In this document: in pieces, positions 2,179 through 16,669 of the stretch
Position numbering within the stretch: position 1 is the stretch's first letter
Layout: each line of letters begins with the position of its first letter
Assembly (NCBI GenBank): GCA_964493205.1
Contig: CAZBMJ010000001.1
Location: 73,611-137,610 of the forward strand
Direction of reading: 5' to 3'
Length of the DNA stretch: 64,000 bases
Source: an uncultured Myxococcales bacterium
GTDB taxonomy: Bacteria > Myxococcota > UBA727 > JABDBI01
Position numbers and translations under genes: made by a program
Notes under the pieces: generated by a model
The model's database searches: none
Told to the model about the DNA's origin: nothing
The model's input: the letters and a program-made list of their open reading frames with translations, nothing else

Positions 2179-4212
2179 ATGAAAAATATTTTTAAAATTT
2201 ATTTTATTATTGTGTTGTTATTTTTTATATCTTCTTGTGTTGATGTTGGAAAATCTGTGGAAAGAAAGCAATCTGGCGCCACAGGAAGTACAGATTCTTC
2301 TGGCTCAAATAACGATGAAACACTAAAAAAATGTAGCGAGCGTTCTAAGACTGAACTTAACTGTAGTTCAGATGGTAAATGCGAACTTTATCAAAATAAC
2401 TGTGTAGATGCTTGTCATACTATAAAAGAACCGACTGCTTGTGATGCACAAAAGCCAAGATGCCAATATTATAATGGAACTTGTTTACAATATTTTAAAG
2501 CTAAAGAACAAGAAGACGCTAAAAAAGAGGCAGAAGAGAAAGCTAAAAAAGAAGCAGAAAAGAAAGCTAAAGAAGAAGCTAACAAAATAGAGATATTAGG
2601 TGAGAATAAATATTTCAAAGTTAGTAAACAAGCTGGAAAAACTAGTTATGAAATAAAAGAAGCCGTTACCAAACCTACATTTATAAAAAAAGATGGGACG
2701 TTAGTGGAAAGTTCTAGTCTAGAGACTATTTCTTATGATGATTTTTCTAAGCTATCTCATATTGCTTTGCCTGAATCACATCCATTTACTAAACAGTTTT
2801 TAGAGAATCCCTTTGTCGGTAAAGATTTTATTACTTCAGCTAGGCCGTCTATGTGGGGCAAACTTTTAGTAGCACAAAAAACTGAGAAAAACACAGTGGT
2901 GTTTAGCATTGATAAAGATGTTTCAAAGCCAGATAAAAAAGTTATTGATGAAGCTAAGCTAACAGAACTTTTTGATGATTTTAAAAAACCAGAAAATCTT
3001 TTGGGCAAAGGTGGGGAGGGCAGTGTTTATAGAGTTAAGTACAATGGCGAAGATTATGCCTTAAAAATAAATGCAGCAGAGTACGAAGATTTAGAAAAAT
3101 TGCAGTCCACTGGGGCAGTGGCCAAAGTTTTTGGGACTTTTACATATGGCAATCAGCCTTGTATGCTCATGGAAGTTGGACAAAAAACTCTAGAAGATAT
3201 GAACAAACGTGGCGAAAAACTTAGTGAAGAGCAACTAAAAACTGCTATTACAAGTTTTAAAAACCTTGTTGCAGTGCAGAAAAAACTTGGGATTAGAAAT
3301 AACGATGTTAAACCAAACAATTTTTTGCTTACTAAAGATAATAAACTTGTAGTTATTGATATAAGTTCGATGCGCACTCGAGGATATGAAAGTTCAGATA
3401 CACAGCTTTTAGCTAGATCATTATTAGAAAATAAATTAGAAATGTCACTTAGAGGTGGTTATAGCGATTTGCAAGGCGTTCCTTTTCATGATCTAGAATA
3501 TATTAATCCAGAAATAATATCTCCAGACCTTTTGGTTAAGTGGAATAAAAAAGTTTGCAGTGAATTTTTACCTAAAGAGGATAAATGTAAAGATATCAAA
3601 AATTTTGCTGAATTTTTTAAACTTATTCCAACAGAGAAACTTTATGAAATTGCTTTGAAAATTAACCAAAAGTGGAATGATGTTTCAGGTACTGTTGATC
3701 AAGATAAGAATCTTATGGCGGGGGGGGGCAAATATCGTACTGGATTACCTATGCCTTTAGTGCAAGAACTAGATAATAACGTTTGGCAACAATACTTTGA
3801 TAAAAAAGACAATGTAATAAGTGGATTTTGTCGTTCTATTATTGCCAATTCTCAATATACTGAAGAAGAAGAAAAAGAAGGCCTTACAGGGGAAAAGGCT
3901 TTTTATAAACCATTTAAAGATAAATATAAGAAAGATTGTCTAGAAGATGGGACTGAAACTAACATCCATCTTCCAGGTAGAAAAGTTACAAAATATAAGT
4001 TAACTAAAAATTTTACTTCATCAGCAGATGAGGAATTTATACAATTTATTAAGGATGCTTATTCCTATCATATTTATCAACAAACCATGGCAAAATTAAT
4101 TGAAGATTATTCTAAATATACTGTTAAATATTTAATTAGTGATATTTTTAATAATGAATTAGATAAAAATGATGAAGTTAATAAAGGTTTAATTGAACTT
4201 TATAATTTGTAA
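2179..4212 (+). CDS. Eukaryotic-like Ser/Thr protein kinase lipoprotein (signal peptide plus lipobox FFISSC, Cys-rich N-terminal module, KEAEEKAKKEAEKKAK coiled-coil-like repeat, kinase domain, long C-terminal region)
   Basis: GKGGEGSVYRV, YALKI, NDVKPNNFLL and VIDISS motifs. Paralog of the 1..1091 gene with an identical C-terminus. Contains a G9 homopolymer at 3720..3728. Confidence 0.6.
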   Translation: MKNIFKIYFIIVLLFFISSCVDVGKSVERKQSGATGSTDSSGSNNDETLKKCSERSKTELNCSSDGKCELYQNNCVDACHTIKEPTACDAQKPRCQYYNGTCLQYFKAKEQEDAKKEAEEKAKKEAEKKAKEEANKIEILGENKYFKVSKQAGKTSYEIKEAVTKPTFIKKDGTLVESSSLETISYDDFSKLSHIALPESHPFTKQFLENPFVGKDFITSARPSMWGKLLVAQKTEKNTVVFSIDKDVSKPDKKVIDEAKLTELFDDFKKPENLLGKGGEGSVYRVKYNGEDYALKINAAEYEDLEKLQSTGAVAKVFGTFTYGNQPCMLMEVGQKTLEDMNKRGEKLSEEQLKTAITSFKNLVAVQKKLGIRNNDVKPNNFLLTKDNKLVVIDISSMRTRGYESSDTQLLARSLLENKLEMSLRGGYSDLQGVPFHDLEYINPEIISPDLLVKWNKKVCSEFLPKEDKCKDIKNFAEFFKLIPTEKLYEIALKINQKWNDVSGTVDQDKNLMAGGGKYRTGLPMPLVQELDNNVWQQYFDKKDNVISGFCRSIIANSQYTEEEEKEGLTGEKAFYKPFKDKYKKDCLEDGTETNIHLPGRKVTKYKLTKNFTSSADEEFIQFIKDAYSYHIYQQTMAKLIEDYSKYTVKYLISDIFNNELDKNDEVNKGLIELYNL

Positions 4213-6027: not shown

Positions 6028-7257
6028 ATGTTAAATGAACTGGACTCTAAATTAATAGGCGGAATTTTATTAGTCGCCGGTACTACTATTGGCGCTGCAA
6101 TGCTTGCTATGCCTATTACCACTGGTTTATTTGGCTTTTTAGGCACATTGGTTATATTGTTAGGCTGCTGGTTATTTATGTATTGGACTGCCACACTTAT
6201 TTTAGAAGCCACTTTGCATTTTGGCCAATCGGCTAGTTTTATTAGTATGGCCAAAAATACTTTAGGACCTATTGGCTTAGGCGTTACGTGGGTATCTTTT
6301 TTATTGTTTTTTTATGCCTTGATTGCAGCTTACTTAAGCGGAAGTGGTGCCATTTTTATCGATGCTATGACTGGTTTTGTGGGCGTAGAAGTTCCTTCAT
6401 GGTTTAAAATGTTACCTATGCTTATATTTTTTTCACCATTTATTTATTTTGGTTTATCAGTAGTTGATCACTTAAATCGTTACTTAATGATTGCTATGTT
6501 ATTAGCATACCTAATTATTATTATTATGCTTTATCCTCAGGCTGGTTCTGGTAAATTATTACATACTGATTGGTCTTTTTCTTTATTATCTTTTTCGGTG
6601 GTAATTACCAGTTTTGGTTTTCACTCTACCATTCCTACCTTGGTGGATTATTTAGAAAGAGATGTCAAAAAGATTAAACAGTGCTTATTCTTTGGCAGTT
6701 TAATACCATTAGCTATTTATATAATTTGGGAAGCTTTAATCTTAAGTATTGTGCCTATTTCGGGAAATTTTGGTTTGGCCTATGCTTTTAGTTACGATAT
6801 GTCTTTATCTCAAGTTCTGCAAAAGCATAACAATAATGATTTTTTAATAATTATTATCAGAGTTTTTTCGTTGTTTACTATTGTCACTTCTTTTTTAGGA
6901 GTGGCACAAGGGCTATTTGACTTTTTGAAAGACGGCGTAAAAGCTAAAAATCATCAAGGTCGTTTATTTGCTTTTATTTTAACTTTTTTACCTCCAGTTT
7001 TATTTATTTTGTTTTTTGAAAAAGGTTTTATAACTCTTTTAGAATATGCTGGGGCCTTAGTATCAATTATTTTAGGTATTATACCAATATTAATAGTCTG
7101 GCATTTGCGATATACTCATAAAAAATCTTTTGGCTATCAGGCTGTAGGGAATAAATTTGCTTTATTATTGGGCTTAGTATTCTTTGGGTTTGTTGTTTTA
7201 CTTGTGCTCTTAAAAAATATGAATTTTATAACCTTTTCTACTGCTGGTTTAATATAA
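6028..7257 (+). CDS. Aromatic amino acid (Tyr/Trp) permease, HAAAP family
   Basis: N-terminal sequence KLIGGILLVAGTTIGAAMLAMPI is typical of the TyrP/Mtr/TnaB family. Polytopic membrane protein of about 11 TM segments. Confidence 0.7.
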   Translation: MLNELDSKLIGGILLVAGTTIGAAMLAMPITTGLFGFLGTLVILLGCWLFMYWTATLILEATLHFGQSASFISMAKNTLGPIGLGVTWVSFLLFFYALIAAYLSGSGAIFIDAMTGFVGVEVPSWFKMLPMLIFFSPFIYFGLSVVDHLNRYLMIAMLLAYLIIIIMLYPQAGSGKLLHTDWSFSLLSFSVVITSFGFHSTIPTLVDYLERDVKKIKQCLFFGSLIPLAIYIIWEALILSIVPISGNFGLAYAFSYDMSLSQVLQKHNNNDFLIIIIRVFSLFTIVTSFLGVAQGLFDFLKDGVKAKNHQGRLFAFILTFLPPVLFILFFEKGFITLLEYAGALVSIILGIIPILIVWHLRYTHKKSFGYQAVGNKFALLLGLVFFGFVVLLVLLKNMNFITFSTAGLI

Positions 7258-7258
7258 A

Positions 7259-8035
7259 ATGCAAAAATTTATTACTGTTGATAAAAAAGATCATATTTTA
7301 CTTATTACTCTTAAGCGCCCTGAAGTAAGAAATGCCCTATCAACAATGCTGCTTTTAGAGTTACAAGCTATTATTTCTAGCATTAAATTAAGTGACACAC
7401 GATGTTTAATTATTACTGGTAGCGGCGATAAAGCTTTTTGTTCTGGAGCAGATTTAAAAGAACGCTCAAGTATGTCGAGTGTTGAAACATTAGATTTTTT
7501 AAACTTGATTGGCAGCACCTTTAATTTATTGGCAAACTTACCCATTCCAACCATTGCTCTTATTAATGCTGATGCATTTGGAGGGGGTTTAGAACTTGCA
7601 CTCGCTTGTGACTTAAGAATTACCCACGAGCAAGTTTTATTAGGGCTTACAGAAACAAGTTTAGGCATTATTCCAGGAGCAGGTGGTACGCAAAGATTAT
7701 CCCGATTAATAGGCGTTTCTAGGGCTTTAGATATGATTTTATGTGCTAAAAAAATTTCAGGCCAAGAAGCTTTTGATATCTCTTTGGTTAATTATTTAGT
7801 ACCAAAAGAACAATTATTGCTCTTTGCATATGAGTTAGCTCACAAAATTAGTAATAATGGGCCACTAAGTTTGGCAGCAGCTAAAAATGCTGTTATTAAT
7901 GGGCTAGACATAAGTTTAAAAGAGGGTTTAGAATTAGAGCGCAATGCTTATAAATCCATTTTATTGAGCCAAGACAGAAAAGAAGGTATTAATGCTTTTT
8001 TACAAAAGCGCCAAGCTTTATTTATAGGCAAATAG
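7259..8035 (+). CDS. Enoyl-CoA hydratase/isomerase (crotonase family)
   Basis: Crotonase fold motifs GSGDKAFCSGADL and FGGGLELALACD. Length 258 aa. Confidence 0.85.
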   Translation: MQKFITVDKKDHILLITLKRPEVRNALSTMLLLELQAIISSIKLSDTRCLIITGSGDKAFCSGADLKERSSMSSVETLDFLNLIGSTFNLLANLPIPTIALINADAFGGGLELALACDLRITHEQVLLGLTETSLGIIPGAGGTQRLSRLIGVSRALDMILCAKKISGQEAFDISLVNYLVPKEQLLLFAYELAHKISNNGPLSLAAAKNAVINGLDISLKEGLELERNAYKSILLSQDRKEGINAFLQKRQALFIGK

Positions 8036-8107
8036 AAATACTTTTATTCTTAATCCAAAAAATCCTCAGTATAGCTATACTAGTTAAATAGCTAAGGGGA
8101 GGGTTAA

Positions 8108-8206
8108 ATGAAAGAAGAAATAATAGCTGATTTAGAACTTGATATTGTAGAAGAGGCAGAACTACCTGAGTTTGATGTTCTTTTACAAAGAGAGTACGAA
8201 GGTTAG
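8108..8206 (+). CDS. 32-aa acidic peptide (MKEEIIADLELDIVEEAELPEFDVLLQREYEG), candidate precursor peptide of the downstream modification operon
   Basis: Very strong Shine-Dalgarno sequence (aaggggaggg) 5 nt upstream. Followed by a hairpin plus T-tract. Sits directly upstream of an HExxH/E1-like/YcaO/MFS operon. Not in the supplied ORF track because it is too short. Confidence 0.45.
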   Translation: MKEEIIADLELDIVEEAELPEFDVLLQREYEG

Positions 8207-8218
8207 TGTTATTTTCTA

Positions 8219-8247
8219 GGGTAGGCGCAGGTCTACCCATTTTTATT
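8219..8247 (+). terminator. Intrinsic terminator or attenuator hairpin (gggtag-gcgcaggt-ctaccc then atttttatt) between the small peptide gene and the enzyme genes
   Basis: 6-bp GC-rich stem with an 8-nt loop, followed by a T-run. Position is typical of a partial terminator that raises precursor-to-enzyme transcript ratio. Confidence 0.5.
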
Positions 8248-8258
8248 AAGGTGCATAT

Positions 8259-9194
8259 ATGCAAGATCAAAAAATATTTCATAAAGATTTAACCCTTACA
8301 AATTCTTTATTTTTTATGGATAATTTGGCATTAAGAGTTAAGAAAATTTTACTTTCTAGACTATTAGATTCTGAAATAGAATTAAAAAACCAAATAGAAT
8401 TTATGTTTAACAAAAAAATTGGCAATAGAAGTTTGTTATTGCATTCAGATATATTTTTTTGGATTAAAAGCCAAGAAAAAACTCCTCTAGAAAATATCTT
8501 AAAAAGTGTTTTAGATAGCTTTAAAACTATGCAAAATAACAAAAATAATTTTGGTTTTTTTATAAGCATTAATTATTTAAATAAAATTTTTACGAGTAAT
8601 CGTCTAGCACGAGCTCAAAGAGCAGCTTCTGAGGCAGGAACTGGAGAAATTTCTTTTAGTATTGTTGATGCTGATCTAGATTTATTCAATGAATCAATAA
8701 GGCTTTTATGTGATTATTATCCTTCTATTATGCAAGAGACAGAAAATTTTGTAAGCAATATTTGTTTTTTTGAAGGTAAGACTATTATAGGCTTTACTGA
8801 TTTTCAAAATCATGGCTCTATTTTTATGAAGTATCGATTAGTAAAAGATAATCCAATACGCCTAGCTGAAGAAATTGTTCATGAAGCAGGACATACAGTG
8901 CTTAATACTATTATGGTCAAAGATAGATTGATTTTAAATACTAAAGACGAGCGCTATAGTAGCCCGTTAAGGCAAGACTTAAGGCCGATGTTTGGCTTAT
9001 TTCATCAGTTATATGTTTTATCTAGGCTTAAAAAATTTTATATGGCCATCAGTAAAGCCCATAGCTCAGTAGCACAAAAGCAGTTACAAAAAATATGTGC
9101 GCAGCAAGATTTAGCTTTTGATATTGTTTCAAAAAATGCAAAATTTACCCCATTTGGTAAACAATTTTTTAATGAGCTTGAGTGTAATGCATGA
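8259..9194 (+). CDS. HExxH-motif protein (putative metal-dependent peptide-modifying enzyme or peptidase)
   Basis: IVHEAGHTVLNT HExxH motif. 4-nt ATGA overlap with the downstream E1-like gene indicates translational coupling. Confidence 0.4.
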   Translation: MQDQKIFHKDLTLTNSLFFMDNLALRVKKILLSRLLDSEIELKNQIEFMFNKKIGNRSLLLHSDIFFWIKSQEKTPLENILKSVLDSFKTMQNNKNNFGFFISINYLNKIFTSNRLARAQRAASEAGTGEISFSIVDADLDLFNESIRLLCDYYPSIMQETENFVSNICFFEGKTIIGFTDFQNHGSIFMKYRLVKDNPIRLAEEIVHEAGHTVLNTIMVKDRLILNTKDERYSSPLRQDLRPMFGLFHQLYVLSRLKKFYMAISKAHSSVAQKQLQKICAQQDLAFDIVSKNAKFTPFGKQFFNELECNA

Positions 9195-10219
9195 GCTTAT
9201 TAGTCTTAGCACCAAAAGTACAAATAGTGCCTCTTGATGAAAACAAAATAATATTATTTAAAAAGCATGCAAAATCTGCAAAACTAAGTATCGAACCATA
9301 TAAACATGAAATTTTTGCTAATCTTTTAGTAAGTGGTTTTAAAAAAGAAGATCTAAGTTTTTTACTGGAAAAGCCTCAAAATATTATTGATAATTTAATT
9401 CAAAAATTGCTTGAACATAAAATTTTATCTTTTAAGTCAGAAAACCATGTTTTGGCAAAATATAGAAGGCTAGAAGCTTATTTAGAAAATTCTCAATTAG
9501 AAAGCTTACAAAACAGTTCTGTTTTATTATTAGGAGTAGGCGGTCTTGGTAGTTATATTTTTGAACATTTAGTTGCCAATGGAATTAAAAATATTACTGT
9601 TCTTGATGATGATAGCGTTGAAGAAAGTAATTTATCCAGACAGACTTTGTATTCTGATGAAGATGTAGGAAACCTCAAAGTTGAGGCGGCAGCTGTATAT
9701 GCTCATAAGCATGGTATAAATATCCGCGCTTTAGCATGCAGAATTAACACTACTGATGATATACTAAAGATTATTAAAGATAATAAATTTGATTTGATCA
9801 TATCCACCATAGATGAGCCCATATGGCAAGTTACGAGATATGTTATTAACGCTGCAAAAGCAACAAATATACCAGTATTACGAGCTAATAGTAGGGCTGT
9901 GGGGCCATTTTATTTTCCTCATAAATCAGCGTGTCCTTTGTGTAAATCTTTTTATAAGGCGAAAAATATACCAAATGCTAAAAGTATTATGGAGCGTTAT
10001 AATAATGGTTTTCCAGCTCGTAAAACCTGCGCTATTAGCTATGAACTTGCCTATGTTAGTTTAATCGTCATAAAAGAGGCTATTAATTTTTTAGCCAATG
10101 TGGGTCAACTTGCCAGTTTCAATAAAGAGCTTACCTGGAATGCACAAGAACTAAGTGTTGCATCTCACAAAGTTATTGCTTGTAGTAATTGCATCGCTTG
10201 CGGTGATGTTTATGAGTGA
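9191..10219 (+). CDS. E1/ThiF/MoeB-like adenylyltransferase-family protein with a ~100-aa N-terminal extension and C-terminal CxxC...CxxCxxC cysteines (MccB/PaaA-like architecture)
   Basis: Rossmann motif LLLGVGGLGS, ThiF signature DDDSVEESNLSRQ, and C-terminal CPLCK...CSNCIACG. Confidence 0.6.
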   Translation: MSLLVLAPKVQIVPLDENKIILFKKHAKSAKLSIEPYKHEIFANLLVSGFKKEDLSFLLEKPQNIIDNLIQKLLEHKILSFKSENHVLAKYRRLEAYLENSQLESLQNSSVLLLGVGGLGSYIFEHLVANGIKNITVLDDDSVEESNLSRQTLYSDEDVGNLKVEAAAVYAHKHGINIRALACRINTTDDILKIIKDNKFDLIISTIDEPIWQVTRYVINAAKATNIPVLRANSRAVGPFYFPHKSACPLCKSFYKAKNIPNAKSIMERYNNGFPARKTCAISYELAYVSLIVIKEAINFLANVGQLASFNKELTWNAQELSVASHKVIACSNCIACGDVYE

Positions 10220-11354
10220 GATGTTTGGAGGCATAGGCACTGATAATGTTATTACTAAAAAATTTTTTCATGAAGAGTCAAGTTTTTATATTGCATACTT
10301 AGCAGCTAAATCACCTAAATTTTTAGGCAATTATAACATACCTGCAGGATATTTAGTGGGTAATGGTTTTTCTTTTAACGAAGAAGAAGCTAAAATAAAG
10401 GCTTTAGGCGAATTTATTGAGAGGTATTGTGCAGAAGTAAGTGTTCATGAAAAAGAAATTTATCGTTATTCTATAAAAGAGCTCGTTAAAAAATCTTTGG
10501 CTTTTGTTCACCCTAATACTCTTAGACCATACAAAAATTGTTCAAAATATCCAGAAATTCAAGATGATGAAGTTATCTCCTATGTTAAAGGTTATGAAGC
10601 ACTTGATAAAAAAGAAATTCTAATACCTGCCTTAGCTGCATTTTTGCCTTTTAAGCCTATTAATTTAGAAACAACTTTTTTTAGCCCCAGTGCTACTGGT
10701 TTGTCAGCTTATACTAATCAAGAACAAGCAGAATTATCAGCTTTATTAGAGGTTCAGGAAAGAAGCGATTTAATGGCCAGTTGGCGAATTAAAAACCTTA
10801 AAATTCAAAAATTGCTTACAAACGATTTGCCTGACCATATTACAAAATTTTTATATTATAATAATTTTAAGTTAAGGCTATTTGTAATTAATCAGACTGT
10901 TTTAGCTATGCTGTGTCATATAAACGATACTGGGTTAACTATTGGCTCTAAATCAGGAGTCATTAATATTATTACGATACTTGCTGCTATTAATGAAGCA
11001 ATTGCTTTGCAAATTACCATGCTAAATAAACGTGTGAGATTTAACGCTATCCCTAAAAATAGTTTAGAACATGTTATGTATGCTTATTTTAACTCTGAAA
11101 TATTTATAGAATTTTATGAGAAAAAAGTTGATGCACAACTAAGTTTTATTTCTGAAAATCAAATAAATAAAAATATATTTTTTGTGGATTTAAGTACTAA
11201 AAAAGCTAAAGAATCAGGTTGGTATTGCGCTAGATGCATAAATATAGAAGCTTTTAGCAAAGAAAATAATGCATATTATCCGCACTTAAAAAACTTTTTT
11301 GAACACGGATTCACTGAGGCTGAGTTAAACTTATTGCCGCATCCTTTTGGTTAA
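10206..11354 (+). CDS. YcaO-domain protein (ATP-dependent peptide backbone-modifying enzyme family)
   Basis: GNGFSFNEEEAKIKALGEFIERY matches the YcaO A-x-GE-x-IERY signature. C-terminus ends in LPHPFG (PxPxP-like). Start chosen at ATG 10206, overlapping the E1-like stop. The ORF track starts it at 10155. Confidence 0.55.
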   Translation: MFMSEMFGGIGTDNVITKKFFHEESSFYIAYLAAKSPKFLGNYNIPAGYLVGNGFSFNEEEAKIKALGEFIERYCAEVSVHEKEIYRYSIKELVKKSLAFVHPNTLRPYKNCSKYPEIQDDEVISYVKGYEALDKKEILIPALAAFLPFKPINLETTFFSPSATGLSAYTNQEQAELSALLEVQERSDLMASWRIKNLKIQKLLTNDLPDHITKFLYYNNFKLRLFVINQTVLAMLCHINDTGLTIGSKSGVINIITILAAINEAIALQITMLNKRVRFNAIPKNSLEHVMYAYFNSEIFIEFYEKKVDAQLSFISENQINKNIFFVDLSTKKAKESGWYCARCINIEAFSKENNAYYPHLKNFFEHGFTEAELNLLPHPFG

Positions 11355-11357
11355 AGA

Positions 11358-12539
11358 ATGAAAAAATCATTGATTATTTTAGGTGTTTCACAAACTATAT
11401 CTTCTATTAGTGTAACTATACTTATATTTGCCCTTATGATGAGCTCTTATGGTAATTCCAAAAGTATTTTAGATCTTGCTTGGGTTTATATAGCCACATC
11501 TTTGCCAGTTTTTTTAGTAGCACCTTTTTGTGGATTATTAATAGATAAGCTTAATAAAAAGCTTAATTTAGTAATAGCCGATAGTATTTGTATTTTATCA
11601 GTACTCTTTCTTTATTTTAATAACTATTTTATTTTCTTGGTAGTTTTTTTTGTACAATTAAGCATAAGTTATCAGGGCTTAACCAATCAAACTTTGGTGT
11701 CGCTATTTTTTAATAAAGATAAACTTCATATGATACTTGGGTGGATGCAATTTAAAAAAGCTTTGCAGCGTTTAGTAGCGCCAGCTTTAGGTGGATATTT
11801 ATATAATATGTTGGAATTAAAATATATTATAGCTGTTAGCATTATTAGTTTAATAATAGCTTTAATTAGTTTAATTTTTGTGAATATACCTAGTGTTAAT
11901 ATTGGAAAATTATCTAACAGCAATTTTATTAATAATGCCGGATTAAAATATATATTGAGCGATAAAAATTTATTTAATATATGCATTTTTTTTATATTTC
12001 TTAATTTTTTATCTGGTATTTATTCTGTTGTTTATACTCCCATATTATTAGCTTTTAGCGATGAACAAGCTTTGGGTTATGCATTAAGTATTGGCAGTTT
12101 GGGAATGATTTTTGCAAGTTTAACGAGCGCTCATATAAAAAGCCTTACACAAAAAAAATATCAAGCTCTTTTGCTATATGTTTTTATGAATGGCTTAAGT
12201 GAAATATTTATGGCTTCATACCCAAATTTTTGGGTCTATTCTGTGGGTTTGTTATTTGGTTGTATTACTTCTTCTTATATAGCTGTTTGTAATAATATTA
12301 TATGGCAGTCTAGTGTGCCGTTCTCTATTCAAGGTGCTACTTTTGGGGCAAGAGATTTTTTTGCTCTTGGTGCATTACCATTGGGTATGCTGATTGGTGG
12401 AATTTTTGGTGATTTTATTAAATCCAACTATGAGCTTTCTCATATATTAATCTTAACGGGAATTTTGCAGTTAATTTTAGTAGCTTTTTATAGCTATGCG
12501 TGGAGGTTTGAGCATGAAGGGGTATATAGTAATAGATAA
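11358..12539 (+). CDS. MFS-family transporter, putative exporter of the modified peptide
   Basis: About 12 predicted TM helices. Starts 4 nt after the YcaO stop. MFS exporters are typical of microcin C and pantocin-type clusters. Confidence 0.55.
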   Translation: MKKSLIILGVSQTISSISVTILIFALMMSSYGNSKSILDLAWVYIATSLPVFLVAPFCGLLIDKLNKKLNLVIADSICILSVLFLYFNNYFIFLVVFFVQLSISYQGLTNQTLVSLFFNKDKLHMILGWMQFKKALQRLVAPALGGYLYNMLELKYIIAVSIISLIIALISLIFVNIPSVNIGKLSNSNFINNAGLKYILSDKNLFNICIFFIFLNFLSGIYSVVYTPILLAFSDEQALGYALSIGSLGMIFASLTSAHIKSLTQKKYQALLLYVFMNGLSEIFMASYPNFWVYSVGLLFGCITSSYIAVCNNIIWQSSVPFSIQGATFGARDFFALGALPLGMLIGGIFGDFIKSNYELSHILILTGILQLILVAFYSYAWRFEHEGVYSNR

Positions 12540-13134
12540 TTTTTATGAGAATCCTGATTTAATTAGAGCTCAAGCTTTAGAAGCTGATTTTTCTAAAAAG
12601 CATCCAAAATATCCAGGTATTGATAGCTCGTTAATGTTTAATAATAGTGAAGCTGAAGAGAAAATTAAAAGTATTATAAAATATGATACTCAAAGAGCAA
12701 GCTATTCAGGATTTTTTCGATTATCTACTGCGGATGAATATTACAAAGAAGGACATGGTATTCATATTGATAAATATGATATTGCTGCGATAATTTATTT
12801 AGCTCAGCCTGGCCAAAATAAACAGGTAGGTACAAGCTTTTTAAAGCATAAAGCTTCTGGTCTTACTAATTTTTATAATATTAAAAGAGATCCTAATCTT
12901 AATCCTGATTGGCAGCGTTTGGATACTCAAGAAATTATGAAAATAATTGTTAACGATATGGAAAAAAATGATGCAACTTTATGGGATTTAGTAGAAGAAG
13001 TGGAGTTTAAATATAATCGCGCTGTTTTAATGAGAGGTAACTTATTTCATAAGTTGAGTAACGGCTTTGGGCAAAATGTAGAAAACGGTCGCTTAACTCA
13101 AAATTTCTTTTTAAATATACCAAGAACTTTATAA
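12514..13134 (+). CDS. Putative 2OG-Fe(II) oxygenase-like protein (candidate HxD...H facial triad: HIDKYD and LFHKLS)
   Basis: N-terminal VIDNFYENPD motif resembles putative 2OG-Fe(II) oxygenase families. The ORF track start at 12496 overlaps the MFS gene. The second Met at 12514 is preferred. Confidence 0.35.
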   Translation: MKGYIVIDNFYENPDLIRAQALEADFSKKHPKYPGIDSSLMFNNSEAEEKIKSIIKYDTQRASYSGFFRLSTADEYYKEGHGIHIDKYDIAAIIYLAQPGQNKQVGTSFLKHKASGLTNFYNIKRDPNLNPDWQRLDTQEIMKIIVNDMEKNDATLWDLVEEVEFKYNRAVLMRGNLFHKLSNGFGQNVENGRLTQNFFLNIPRTL

Positions 13135-13231
13135 AAAATTTTTTTGTTTTTCCCCAAAAATGTCTTGATTCTACTATGGTAATAAAATAGTTATTTAAAA
13201 ATTATTTTTATTATTTATATTTAGGATTTTT

Positions 13232-14425
13232 ATGTTAAAAATTAAATTATTATATTTATTATTGCTTTTACAGTTTTTTTCTTGCACTAATTATAATAAA
13301 CAAATCAAAAAAAATAATAATTTATTGTCCTTATGGCTCCCTTTTTCTTCTAAAAGAACAAAACAAGCTTATGAGCATTCTTTAATTAGAACTTCTAGGC
13401 TTAGTTCTGATTGCGGCAAAAATTGTCCTGATATTGATGTTTGGCAATATAAATACAAAAATATAACTAGTGATAAACCTATTTCTACTCAAAAAAAATA
13501 CTGGAAATCACCTAATGAAGCTCGAGTCATAGCTATAAGTTTATTTGGAACCAATGAGTTTTATTATAATGCTTTGCTGCAATATATAGATAGTTTTGCT
13601 TATATTAAAAATATTAATAATATAAAAGATAAAATTTGGGGTTATGAAACGTTTACTGTTAGAGTTTATGTTCCCAAACGAAATCCTAAATTTTTAAAAG
13701 AATTAGGGGTGATTGGAGGCGGCTTAGAGCAGAAAAAAATAGATAAATTATTAGATTTAGGATGCGAAATAGCATTTGTTGATAATAAATTATCTGAGGC
13801 TAAGAAAGATGCTACTTTTTGGCGATTTATGATTACTCAAGAAGCCATGTTAGAAGGCGAAAAAATTAGATATCTACTTAGAGATGCAGACAGTATTTTA
13901 ACTGCTGGTGAAATGTACACAGTTGCCGATTGGATCAATAGCCATAAAAAATATCATAGAATGCATACCATACCCATTTGTATAGGTCCTTTAACGGCAA
14001 GTATTTGGGGGGGGACTCATAGCGAAAAGGGTGATTTTAGTGATTTTTATGACTCGGTAAAAAATTACCCTTATAGATTTGAATACGGCGATGATGAATT
14101 ATTTTTAAGAGACATTATTTGGCCAAAAATAAAATTTTCTGGTTCTGTTCTTACTCATCATTTTGATCGTGATTCATATATAACTAAAATAGCCAACCCT
14201 TATAAAAATAGTTGCGAAGAGCCTACACAGGATTTTTGCTTACAACTAAATCCTAATTCTCAGTGTGAAGATCGTATTTTGCCCAACGTAAAAAATTTAC
14301 AAGGTGCCGTAGAAGCTTTAGGATTAAGAAAAACCTTAAAAGAGTTATCAGAAAAGCACCCAGAGTTTTTTGATCTAGATTTAGCCAACAAAGATAGAAA
14401 ATTTGTTTACGAAACATTTAGGTAA
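13232..14425 (+). CDS. Hypothetical lipoprotein (signal peptide, lipobox FFSC)
   Basis: N-terminal MLKIKLLYLLLLLQFFSCTN. No motif recognised. Confidence 0.5.
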   Translation: MLKIKLLYLLLLLQFFSCTNYNKQIKKNNNLLSLWLPFSSKRTKQAYEHSLIRTSRLSSDCGKNCPDIDVWQYKYKNITSDKPISTQKKYWKSPNEARVIAISLFGTNEFYYNALLQYIDSFAYIKNINNIKDKIWGYETFTVRVYVPKRNPKFLKELGVIGGGLEQKKIDKLLDLGCEIAFVDNKLSEAKKDATFWRFMITQEAMLEGEKIRYLLRDADSILTAGEMYTVADWINSHKKYHRMHTIPICIGPLTASIWGGTHSEKGDFSDFYDSVKNYPYRFEYGDDELFLRDIIWPKIKFSGSVLTHHFDRDSYITKIANPYKNSCEEPTQDFCLQLNPNSQCEDRILPNVKNLQGAVEALGLRKTLKELSEKHPEFFDLDLANKDRKFVYETFR

Positions 14426-14428
14426 AGT

Positions 14429-16669
14429 ATGATTAAATCAAGATGGTTTTACGATATATCTTCTAGCATAACAGTATTTTTAGTCGCATTGCCCTTGTGC
14501 CTAGGTATTGCTCTTGCTTCTAATGCTTCTTTAGTTTCAGGTATTTTATCAGGCGTTGTAGGAGGTATAGTTGTAGGGTTTCTAAGTGGTTCTCATGTAA
14601 GTGTCAGTGGCCCTTCTGCAGCTCTTGCTTCTATTATTGTTACACAAATTCTTGTTCTAGGATCGTTTGAAGCATTTTTAATAGCTTTAATTATTGCAGG
14701 ATTAATCCAAATAATAATGGGCTTATTTAAAATTGGTTTTATTGCAGCTTTTTTCCCAAACAGCGTCATTAAAGGCCTACTTTTTTCTGTTGGTGTAATT
14801 ATAGTATTAAAACAGTTGCCCCATTTAGTTGGTTTAGATTTAGATTATGAAGGCGACATGTCTTTTTGGCAACTTGATCATGAAAATACTTTTAGTGAAA
14901 TTGTTAAAATGTTTTCTTTTTTTCATACCGGTTGCTTAATAGTAGGTATGTCTTCTTTAGCTTTTATAGTGGCCTGGAATAAGTTTACTTTTTCTAAAAA
15001 AGTTAAAATTCCTTCTGCTTTATTGGTTGTATTATTTGGTAGTTTTTTAGGTTTTTGCTTGCCTTATATAAATAAGTGGTGGTTTATTGACGCAGGGCAC
15101 TTAGTTCAAGTGCCGTTAGTAACCAGCCTACATGATATAAAAAATTTTTTTATTTTACCAAATTTTATTCACTTGAATAACCCAGAAGTTTATATAGCAG
15201 GTTTTACTTTGGCGTTAGTTGCATCTTTGGAAACTTTATTAAATTTAGAAGCTGTTGATAAAATAGATCCAAAAGGTCGTAAGTCTCCTGCTAATAGAGA
15301 GTTAATAGCCCAGGGGATAGGAAATTTAGTTTTAGGCTTTATAGGTGGCTTGCCAGTGACTTCGGCAGTTATTCGTAGCTCTGTTAATATTAATGCTAAA
15401 GCGCAAAGTAAATTATCAGCTATTCTTCATGGTTTTTTTTTGCTATTTTGTGTGACTTTATTGCCTCAAGTATTAAATTATATTCCACTTTCTTGTTTGG
15501 CAGCTATATTGATAGTTACAGGGGCTAAACTTGCTAATTTATCGGTTATAAAACAAATATGGCAGGAAGGTTTAAACCAATTTTTACCATTTTTAGTAAC
15601 TTTTTTAGCTATTATGTTTTCTGATTTATTAATGGGTGTACTTATTGGCTTAGGAACAAGCATATTTTTTATTTTGAAAAGTAATTTAAAAACGCCTGTT
15701 AAAATCTGTACTGAAAATCACCCCTCAGGTGAGCGCAAGCGTATGATTTTATCTAATCAGGTAAGCTTTTTAAATCGTGCATCTTTAAATAGAGCTCTTG
15801 ATAGCATTACTAATGGTAGTCATTTAGTAATTGATGCAACAGAGACTGATTATATAGATGCTGATGTTCTAGATTTAATAAAAGATTTTAAAGATAGTGA
15901 ATCTCAAAAAAGAGACATAGTAATAAGTTTAATAGGTTTTAAAGATTCTTACGATATAGAAAATTTTATTCAATATGAAGAGCATATTACCCATGAACTA
16001 CAAAAAAATCTTACTCCATTAGAAGTGCTTGATATTATTAAAAAAGGGAATGATAGGGTTATTAAAGGACAAAAACTTAAGCGTGATCTTAACCGCCAAA
16101 TACAAGGAACTAAAGAAGGTCAATTTCCTATGGCAGTGGTTTTAAGTTGTATCGATTCAAGAGTGCCCGTTGAACTTATTTTTGATTTAGGCATAGGTGA
16201 TGCTTTTAGTGTTCGTATGGCGGGCAATGTGATAAGTCCTAAAGTATTAGGAAGCTTAGAATTTTCTTGTGCGGTTGCCAAAGCAAAACTTATTGTTGTC
16301 ATGGGCCATACCAAATGTGGGGCAGTTGCTGCTGCAATTGAATGCTTAAAAAATAACCAATCTATTGAGGAAAAAACAGGATGCTATAATTTAGGCGGTA
16401 TAATTAATGATATTCAAAAAGTTATTGATAAGCCTTTAATTAACCAGAGTGATGCTTACCTCAATGAAGTAGTGAAATCTAATGTTTTGCAGGCGATTCA
16501 TGATATAAAAAATAAAAGTTTTGTGCTTAATAACTTACTCAAACAAAATAATATAGCTATAGTTGGTTGTATTTATGATGTATCAAGTGGCAAAGTGGAA
16601 TTTTTAGATTTAGCAAAAAATAGATTATTTTCTTCCGCTAAACAAGAGCTATTAGAATTGCTTAATTAA
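14429..16669 (+). CDS. SulP-family anion transporter with STAS domain, fused to a C-terminal beta-carbonic anhydrase
   Basis: SulP membrane domain about 420 aa. C-terminal CIDSRVP and VMGHTKCGAV are the beta-carbonic anhydrase zinc ligand motifs (CxDSR and HxxC). Confidence 0.7.
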   Translation: MIKSRWFYDISSSITVFLVALPLCLGIALASNASLVSGILSGVVGGIVVGFLSGSHVSVSGPSAALASIIVTQILVLGSFEAFLIALIIAGLIQIIMGLFKIGFIAAFFPNSVIKGLLFSVGVIIVLKQLPHLVGLDLDYEGDMSFWQLDHENTFSEIVKMFSFFHTGCLIVGMSSLAFIVAWNKFTFSKKVKIPSALLVVLFGSFLGFCLPYINKWWFIDAGHLVQVPLVTSLHDIKNFFILPNFIHLNNPEVYIAGFTLALVASLETLLNLEAVDKIDPKGRKSPANRELIAQGIGNLVLGFIGGLPVTSAVIRSSVNINAKAQSKLSAILHGFFLLFCVTLLPQVLNYIPLSCLAAILIVTGAKLANLSVIKQIWQEGLNQFLPFLVTFLAIMFSDLLMGVLIGLGTSIFFILKSNLKTPVKICTENHPSGERKRMILSNQVSFLNRASLNRALDSITNGSHLVIDATETDYIDADVLDLIKDFKDSESQKRDIVISLIGFKDSYDIENFIQYEEHITHELQKNLTPLEVLDIIKKGNDRVIKGQKLKRDLNRQIQGTKEGQFPMAVVLSCIDSRVPVELIFDLGIGDAFSVRMAGNVISPKVLGSLEFSCAVAKAKLIVVMGHTKCGAVAAAIECLKNNQSIEEKTGCYNLGGIINDIQKVIDKPLINQSDAYLNEVVKSNVLQAIHDIKNKSFVLNNLLKQNNIAIVGCIYDVSSGKVEFLDLAKNRLFSSAKQELLELLN

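Follow-up and report, generated by a model that had tools for sequence, protein, structure and literature searches.

The peptides made by ribosomes and then modified after translation (RiPPs) that most resemble the system reported here are the tiarins (the trifolitoxin family), microcin C, the azoline-containing peptides and the peptides modified by alpha-ketoglutarate (aKG)-HExxH enzymes. In tiarins, the residue before a conserved glutamine of the precursor matches an aminoacyl-tRNA synthetase (aaRS) encoded in the same cluster, which is a resistant copy of the target (bioRxiv 10.64898/2025.12.02.691738). The aKG-HExxH enzymes beta-hydroxylate glutamine (PMC12636437). YcaO enzymes can use a nucleophile made by earlier modifications, and a C-terminal PxPxP sequence is regarded as the mark of the azoline-forming ones (PMC12338566). 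The phenyloxazole of curacozole-type peptides has been proposed to derive from beta-hydroxyphenylalanine (PMC11575548). Here we describe an operon in a stretch of DNA from an uncultured Myxococcales bacterium (contig CAZBMJ010000001.1; "the window" hereafter means this whole stretch of 64 kb). It is headed by a 32-codon open reading frame (ORF), followed by genes for an aKG-HExxH hydroxylase, a MccB-like E1/ThiF adenylyltransferase, a YcaO protein, a major facilitator superfamily (MFS) exporter and a DUF6445 protein. From comparison with related loci, the small ORF very probably encodes a genuine RiPP precursor. Our best reading of the locus is a RiPP cluster whose precursor family and enzyme set are new; we found no published description of it, and we consider it likely that the peptide is the precursor of an uncharacterised RiPP family, probably one that targets aaRSs.

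Judged by its genes and precursors, the family shares single features with each of the described systems and lacks at least one defining feature of the first three. Like those of the tiarins, its precursor is short, has a strong Shine-Dalgarno sequence and lies directly upstream of the enzyme genes; its core holds an invariant Gln, and the residue preceding it matches an aaRS in a subset of clusters (here Met and methionyl-tRNA synthetase, MetRS, in four lineages). YcaO and ThiF-like proteins also occur as accessory enzymes in some tiarin clusters, whereas in the present family the constant enzymes are the HExxH protein, the MccB-like E1 and the YcaO, and the precursor motif bears no relation to TfxA. 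The Pfam listings of the window and of the family loci contain no nitroreductase or SagB-type protein. Because the defining TfxB/TfxC flavin mononucleotide-dependent dehydrogenase pair is thus absent from every locus examined, the family is not a tiarin by membership, though it may work alike. With microcin C it has in common an E1 nearest to MccB (4e-47) that conserves the catalytic and zinc-site residues, a small precursor gene followed by enzymes, the proposed aaRS target class and an MFS pump. It differs from microcin C in that the window peptide ends in Gly (an Asn end is found in 2 of 37 precursors), in precursors of 32-97 residues instead of a heptapeptide, and in the extra core enzymes HExxH and YcaO. 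The linear azol(in)e peptides (thiazole/oxazole-modified microcins), whose cyclodehydratases consist of an E1-like C protein and a YcaO D protein, likewise have adjacent, overlapping genes for E1-like and YcaO proteins, and the YcaO described here has their ATP site, a P-H-P-x-G end and a SagD-type best NCBIfam match; unlike them, the family has no conserved core Cys, Ser or Thr and no SagB-type dehydrogenase, and its E1 is of the catalytically intact MccB type and not a degenerate scaffold. The likeness to the aKG-HExxH-modified RiPPs (ChlBH, BpmH, PflC/PosC) lies in a TIGR04267 match above the cutoff, an invariant HExxH, and a hydroxylase gene that adjoins a precursor with a conserved Gln-containing C-terminal motif. 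A full-text literature search with the motif strings returned no paper, and searches for HExxH + YcaO + ThiF and for MccB + YcaO returned none that describes the family.

The precursor gene and its operon

The cluster spans 8108..13134 of the window, with its genes on one strand and tightly packed or overlapping; its GC content, 26-33%, is similar to that of the flanks. Its features are the following (numbers with L denote related loci).

8093..8102, forward strand: Shine-Dalgarno region aaGGGGAGGg, with 5 nt from the GGAGG core to the ATG
8108..8206, forward strand: precursor peptide gene, 32 codons plus stop, product MKEEIIADLELDIVEEAELPEFDVLLQREYEG
8108..8161, forward strand: variable acidic N-terminal part, residues 1-18, the presumed leader, which holds the non-conserved Glu-Glu-Ala (differences in L079, unrelated leaders elsewhere)
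8162..8197, forward strand: family-defining motif LPEFDVLLQREY (alignment of 12 precursors; synonymous changes relative to L009)
8219..8247, forward strand: stem-loop of 8 bp with a 4-nt loop, plus a T-run, between the precursor and hydroxylase genes
8259..9194, forward strand: aKG-HExxH-type peptide hydroxylase, 311 aa, HEAGH (TIGR04267, 78 bits, cutoff 40)
9191..10219, forward strand: MccB-like E1/ThiF adenylyltransferase, 342 aa, overlapping both neighbours (PF00899 at 1e-34)
10206..11354, forward strand: YcaO, 382 aa, ending in PHPFG (PF02624, 1.3e-25; TIGR03604 SagD-type, 4e-24); the public gene caller places its start 2 codons later
11358..12539, forward strand: MFS efflux transporter, 393 aa, presumed to act in export and self-protection (domain searches)
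12514..13134, forward strand: DUF6445 protein, 206 aa (PF20043 at 4.7e-16), its start set by the second GGAGG site

A preliminary description of this DNA had taken the 32-codon ORF for a RiPP-type precursor gene directly upstream of its enzymes, and the conserved small ORF that precedes the enzyme trio in related loci bears this out. Its translation is exactly as given there, an acidic peptide with 12 Asp/Glu against 2 Lys/Arg, and the peptide is devoid of Cys, Ser and Thr. The Shine-Dalgarno sequence was rightly called very strong: aaggggagggttaaATG was confirmed at this site, aaGGGGAGGgttaaATG being the stretch directly 5' of the ORF, and only two stretches of the whole window have GGAGG followed by 4-9 nt and ATG, this one and 12502-12514, where the DUF6445 gene begins (12514). 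The string AGGGGAGG occurs once in the window, with 0.31 occurrences expected, and the Shine-Dalgarno sequence is the same in the close relative L079. The ORF was also predicted by an independent gene caller in a public collection, and records of the exact peptide exist for 4 contigs in 5 sources. The gene after it begins at 8259. This gene, the first enzyme of the operon, had been overlooked in the preliminary description, as had the conserved element LPxFxVL-X-Q-x-E-Y of the peptide.

Conservation of the small ORF across related loci

In every related locus that keeps the HExxH, ThiF and YcaO genes and includes the upstream DNA, one small ORF with an intact frame lies directly before the aKG-HExxH gene, which is the outcome that the preliminary description had asked of a true precursor. 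Because it is retained with its motif wherever related loci keep the enzymes, the ORF must be a real, conserved gene. The order precursor, HExxH, ThiF, YcaO is found in the window, L009, L011, L014, L017, L018, L019, L141 and L144, and the family genes are present in rearranged form in L021 and L143; the contig of L008, the closest relative with a long contig, stops just short of the precursor. The C-termini of precursors from these loci read as follows.

L009 (metagenome): ...ELPEFDVLLQREYEA
L011 (metagenome): ...DLPELDVLLQREYDN
L014 (metagenome): ...KLPNFPVLMQTEYQ
L017 (Taibaiella sp. KBW10): ...QLPDFGVLLQMEYAD
L018 (metagenome): ...ELPNFRLLMQLEYSQKPEA
L019 (metagenome): ...LLPDFSVLVQRNEYAE
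L021 (Chitinimonas sp. PSY-7): ...DLPMFRVLLQNEYQG

Searched against 5.8 billion proteins, a profile built from 12 precursors matched 34 peptide clusters, and 37 distinct precursors of 32 to 97 aa were collected in all. Each of the 37 has the motif LP-x-[F/L/I/V]-x-[V/L]-L-X-Q-x(1-2)-E-Y, where X is Leu, Met or Val, with a tail of 0-10 residues behind it. Each locus has exactly one motif-bearing ORF, and no other candidate substrate gene was found in any of them. When 12 divergent precursors were aligned, six columns (L, P, L, Q, E, Y) were invariant, with F and V nearly so. We presume that LPxFxVL is a recognition stretch and X-Q-x-E-Y the core; in the window peptide X is Leu25, and Gln26, Glu28 and Tyr29 are the invariant residues. 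One metagenome contig of 1328 nt encodes a precursor (P0186) whose core unit is doubled, ...LLQREYDG-VQGEYDGG. NCBIfam has no model for the precursor peptide, which is readily found by its motif although it is shorter than the usual ORF-length cut-offs.

The pattern of substitutions shows that selection on the precursor is at the protein level. The family enzymes are 20-48% identical to those of the window, and the GC content of the loci ranges from 31 to 52%. Between the window and L009 the motif differs at 6 of 36 nt, all synonymous, with enzymes 38-48% identical and a GC content of 31% versus 52%. The L079 precursor differs from that of the window in 7 codons, 4 of them synonymous and 3 conservative (E10D, A17V, E18D), all in the leader. 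The leaders of other family members are unrelated to that of the window, and some are Lys-rich. The long-leader precursors (L017, L018, P0192, P0194, P0196, P0197) have an N-terminal motif G-K/R/H-[LI]-Y-x-[IL]-P, which may be an extra recognition element.

The last residue of the 37 precursors is G in 13 and Y in 8, these 8 ending right at the conserved Tyr, and otherwise A, Q, R, N, D, E, P or S. Cys, Ser and Thr are absent from the residues conserved across all precursors; Thr stands after the Gln solely in the Met-type peptides, and Arg, Asn, Gln or Met is found there in the Leu-type. Leu/Arg members go with DUF6445, and Leu/Asn (L021) and Leu/Met (L017) members with Cupin_8.

These comparisons change part of the earlier picture of the peptide. 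A conserved C-terminal Tyr-Glu-Gly had been expected: the Tyr and the Glu preceding it in the motif are indeed invariant, but the final Gly varies. The Glu-Glu-Ala that had been likened to the Glu-Glu-Asn of pantocin lies in the variable leader, with A, V, S, T or E at its third position in close relatives and the Glu-Glu itself gone from distant ones. Because neither the final Gly nor Glu-Glu-Ala is conserved, ThiS/MoaD-like and PaaA-like substrates are both unsupported. A ThiS-like sulfur carrier, a beta-grasp protein of ~65-90 aa with a Gly-Gly end, was rejected on further grounds: the peptide has 32 aa and ends in Glu-Gly. The pantocin A system (PaaP/PaaA) is alike in having an E1-like enzyme whose substrate is an acidic peptide of ribosomal origin; its Glu-Glu-Asn core is absent from the window peptide, and pantocin-like chemistry was likewise rejected.

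A degenerate DNA pattern of the motif gave 118 matches in a metagenome collection, where a hand estimate puts the chance expectation at ~120, and the genuine ones are only those beside family enzymes (L031, L060, L079, L111); for a further match, L067, the contig is too short to judge. A word-index search with the YcaO hit just the protein itself. The YcaO found no relatives in a scan of genome contigs, and a 3-sequence profile found only distant YcaOs of 21-29% identity there. The sole match in a plasmid collection is an unrelated thiopeptide/TOMM cluster in Anoxybacillus.

The enzymes of the operon

All 11 loci of the family that were tested encode the TIGR04267 domain of the hydroxylase; ten of them exceed the 40-bit cutoff, L141 falls just short of it with 38.8 bits, and residues H208, E209, H212, N216, R238 and R242 are invariant across the family.

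For the E1 protein, the preliminary description had drawn a comparison with PaaA, and MccB turned out to be much closer. A profile of eight family E1 proteins matched MccB best among solved relatives (4e-47, 164 bits, nearly full length), with lower scores for MoeB (99 bits), PaaA (91) and ThiF (89). The window protein used singly gave the same ranking, and none of the degenerate E1-like scaffolds of azoline synthetases was among the top 60 matches of the family profile. The family shows no variation in the Gly-rich loop, in D139, D141, N147, K163, D208 or R231, or in either CxxC pair. From these residues, the E1 looks like a working adenylyltransferase rather than a mere scaffold. It also carries an extra N-terminal domain of ~95 aa, and the family profile joins MccB from residue 58-65 on.

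In the YcaO protein, the two acidic ExxE(R) pairs of the ATP site and the C-terminal P-H-P-F/Y-G are invariant in the family; the C-terminus is a near-canonical PxPxP in which the last Pro is replaced by Gly. This YcaO lineage is rare, with 7 representatives below 1e-30 among 1.84 billion proteins.

The MFS gene occupies the same position in L008, L009 and L011 and is also present in L021, and the DUF6445 gene is co-located in L008, L009 and L011. An HxD...H is invariant in the alignment of DUF6445 proteins, which suggests that this protein is possibly a second oxygenase, of the Fe/2-oxoglutarate type. A second oxygenase-like protein, Cupin_8/JmjC, is encoded elsewhere in the family, in L017 and L021. 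Searches with DUF6445 found no solved relative, and a profile comparison with the Cupin_8 proteins, which take its place in other loci, showed no relation.

MetRS genes beside Met-type clusters

MetRS genes adjoin several family clusters.

L014, 6025-7689, same strand as the precursor: MetRS, immediately upstream (TIGR00398, 523 bits, cutoff 336)
L143, 118-1776, same strand as the precursor: MetRS, directly upstream
L144, 1039-2808, reverse strand: MetRS, upstream of the precursor and divergent
L060, 3-149, just before the precursor: 3' end of a MetRS gene, a 49-residue fragment 75% identical to L143

The MetRS proteins of L014/L031/L111, L143 and L144 score 480-523 bits with TIGR00398, above the cutoff of 336, and, the L060 fragment excepted, the cluster proteins are 33-52% identical to each other. 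Given this low identity and the different gene arrangements, the four MetRS-linked Met-type loci represent independent lineages, and in all four Met precedes the invariant Gln. A MetRS gene is adjacent in 4 of 7 Met-type loci and in 0 of 7 Leu/Val-type loci (Fisher one-sided p = 0.035), the other three Met-type loci (L018, L141/142, L067) showing none in what little flanking DNA they have, and the a priori chance for any single gene to adjoin MetRS is tiny. By analogy with the tiarins, the cluster-linked MetRS is probably an immunity protein in the Met-type relatives. The element that carries the L014 cluster also has ParB/RepB and resolvase genes, and a gene for a NUDIX hydrolase comes after the cluster. 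Beside the L141 cluster, at positions 6390-12370, lie genes for a tRNA-dependent cyclodipeptide synthase (TIGR04539, just at the cutoff) and for a MoeB-like ThiF, together with those for a guanylate cyclase and a further YcaO; they may belong to another tRNA-linked pathway.

The intergenic hairpin

A hairpin with a T-run had been noted between the precursor and the enzyme genes. It is there, GGGTAGGC-GCAG-GTCTACCC at 8219..8238, 13 bases past the stop codon and followed by ATTTTTATTA; the "6-bp GC stem" ascribed to it was not quite right, since the stem has 8 pairs, 5 of them G-C and one G.U. Its free energy is -14.5 kcal/mol (z = -1.9 relative to shuffled sequences). The region 7000..14600 has 5 terminator-like sites, 3.9 being the chance expectation, and this one is the strongest. 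With such a z value and such a number of expected sites, the hairpin taken alone is modest evidence. The equivalent position is occupied by a hairpin in L079, L009, L011, L014/L111, L019 and L021, and that of L079 has two pair-preserving substitutions relative to the window. Being present in most lineages and missing from three, it is common but dispensable. The hairpin is probably a partial terminator or attenuator that separates the precursor from the enzyme genes, and a role in tuning the ratio of precursor to enzymes is consistent with this, termination itself being putative.

A proposed pathway and its alternatives

We propose that the variable N-terminus and LPxFxVL would act as leader and recognition sequence and X-Q-x-E-Y as the core; X-Q-x-E-Y is favoured as the modified unit because P0186 holds two Q-x-E-Y units. 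In the manner of PflC/PosC, the HExxH enzyme would first beta-hydroxylate a residue, probably the invariant Gln; in a second, ATP-consuming reaction the E1/YcaO pair would close the X-Gln junction into an oxazoline-type heterocycle. A role for the HExxH enzyme as nucleophile maker is suggested by the lack of a conserved Cys, Ser or Thr, when the E1-YcaO pair nevertheless looks like a cyclodehydratase. If X-(beta-OH)Gln were cyclodehydrated, the carbonyl of X would become part of the oxazoline, which would explain how residue X could define the aaRS target. The E1, its MccB-like site being intact, may also activate the invariant Glu or the carboxy terminus, or nucleotidylate. We regard this sequence of hydroxylation and cyclodehydration as a doubtful, if workable, chemistry. 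The strong Shine-Dalgarno sequence and a leaky hairpin would yield the precursor in excess over the enzymes, and the MFS pump would export the product of the window's Leu-type peptide. By analogy with the tiarins, the product would be an aaRS inhibitor with its specificity set by residue X, and because the window peptide is Leu-type, leucyl-tRNA synthetase (LeuRS) is its predicted target. For the family as a whole we hold an aaRS-directed function, argued from this analogy, to be an evenly balanced proposition; for the window member, the same analogy makes it a tentative one.

Several observations weigh against this proposal. The product chemistry is inferred from the genes and from precedents, no product, mass shift or activity having been observed. 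No aaRS gene lies within 8-10 kb of the window cluster or of the other Leu-type clusters (0 of 7 for the Leu/Val-type), and a LeuRS immunity gene, looked for throughout the 64 kb, was not found, so that the aaRS idea for the window member rests on analogy. In 18 of 19 Met-type precursors, Met before Gln co-occurs with Thr after Gln; given this co-variation, the Met-type may use its native Thr, and the chemistry may differ between subtypes. The catalytic residues of the E1 are intact, which would be needless in a mere scaffold, and its S-R-Q motif has lost Arg in L018 and Gln in L017. A RiPP recognition element at the E1 N-terminus is only putative, as that part has no Pfam match; the single-sequence AlphaFold models of the E1 and of DUF6445 have a pLDDT of ~33. 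The best solved relatives of the YcaO are weak and mixed, namely the thioamidation-type MJ1094, E. coli YcaO, MusD, TruD and LynD. The hairpin is missing in L017, L060 and L067 (3 of 11 lineages), in which the gap from precursor to next gene is only 6-14 nt.

One alternative is a microcin C-like route with the MccB-like E1 as its key enzyme, which would attach a nucleotide to the peptide, the bond being of the N-P or acyl-AMP kind. Before that, the peptide could lose its Q-x-E-Y or x-E-Y tail, either by oxidative backbone cleavage by the HExxH enzyme to a terminal amide or by the YcaO acting as an ATP-dependent peptidase, and the product would be a mimic of a peptidyl-aminoacyl-adenylate whose last residue, X, sets the aaRS target. 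That the E1 is closest to MccB over the whole adenylation domain, with conserved catalytic residues, speaks for this route, as does the ability of HExxH enzymes (PflC/PosC) to cleave the backbone oxidatively at a C-terminal motif; the 0-10-residue tail after the Tyr is as expected for a discarded follower, a NUDIX hydrolase gene follows the YcaO gene in L014-L016, and the MetRS linkage suits an aminoacyl-adenylate mimic. However, MccB chemistry requires a C-terminal Asn, which is not conserved and is confined to one lineage, and PosC beta-hydroxylated large residues such as Gln without cleavage (PMC12636437). The invariant Glu-Tyr and the doubled Q-x-E-Y of P0186 suggest that these residues are modified and not discarded, and no obvious role would be left for the YcaO. 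We therefore consider the microcin C-like route quite unlikely.

A different chemistry, yielding a macrocycle, lactone or imide on Gln, Glu or Tyr, seems unlikely but deserves slightly more weight. Here the E1, in the way of GrcB and IndF, would have the Glu side chain or the C-terminus as the group it activates, the YcaO would form an amidine or recruit the side-chain amide of Gln as nucleophile, and the product would be a signal, a metal binder or an antibiotic with a different target, the MetRS genes being passengers or biosynthetic. There are ThiF-like RiPP enzymes that activate a Glu side chain or a C-terminus for cyclisation (PMC12596934), the precursors have an invariant Glu and an invariant Tyr, second oxygenases (DUF6445 or Cupin_8) are frequent, two genes for TonB-dependent receptors adjoin the Chitinimonas cluster (L021), and most loci have no aaRS gene. 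Against it, MetRS genes occur in four independent lineages and three arrangements, in Met-type loci only, which is hard to ascribe to chance. It is also conceivable that the small ORF is no substrate at all but a regulatory leader or ribosome-arrest peptide which, with the hairpin, controls the operon: a short ORF and a terminator-like hairpin before an operon are the classic layout of an attenuator, and the conserved C-terminal motif lies near the stop codon. But the three lineages with a 6-14 nt gap and no hairpin still keep the motif, the distance from motif to stop varies from 0 to 10 codons, and the enzymes belong to peptide-modifying families (TIGR04267, MccB-like, SagD-like YcaO) with no other substrate gene in any locus. 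In L143, moreover, ThiF and YcaO are encoded on the opposite strand, beyond the reach of attenuation. A purely regulatory peptide is accordingly very improbable.

Returning to the proposed aaRS-directed RiPP, one may go further and suggest, tentatively, that the clusters encode, beside the tiarins, another family of programmable ribosomal aaRS inhibitors, made by unrelated enzymes, in which X before Gln (Leu, Met, Val) sets the target. The warhead would come from hydroxylase-enabled YcaO heterocyclisation or from MccB-type nucleotidylation, on a peptide without a native Cys, Ser or Thr nucleophile. Such warhead chemistry would be one not described for the HExxH/E1/YcaO trio, and the X-Gln logic would be convergent with that of the tiarins. 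If this holds, the loci define a new RiPP family by its precursor motif and enzyme trio, with at least 37 precursors, including those of Taibaiella, Chitinimonas and many uncultured bacteria, and the residue before Gln is a sequence rule that may predict the target synthetase of the antibiotic. They would also pose a puzzle of enzymology, with an azoline-type YcaO working on a core without Cys, Ser or Thr beside an E1 that keeps a MccB-like active site. The precursor and the three enzymes are four small genes, open to a direct co-expression test.

Neighbouring genes in the window

Genes flanking the operon were considered as cluster members and rejected: upstream PepA (leucyl aminopeptidase), a Trp/Tyr permease and an enoyl-CoA hydratase, and downstream a 397-aa lipoprotein-like ORF and the SulP-carbonic anhydrase. 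They were not counted because they recur only in the near-identical L008 and L079 and not in L009 or L011. The scan of the window with Rfam found two tRNAs only. The more distant genes include the following.

14429-16669, forward strand: fused SulP sulfate permease and beta-carbonic anhydrase, 746 aa, conserved in L008
16772-20917, forward strand: 1381-aa ORF with a GC content down to ~15% and no Pfam domain; a similar-sized protein is encoded near the L008 cluster
165-1091, 2179-4212 and 49820-52648: two eukaryote-type protein kinase proteins, and one with FG-GAP repeats and a disintegrin domain

Together with the 30% GC content, the kinase and FG-GAP proteins hint at a host-associated bacterium.

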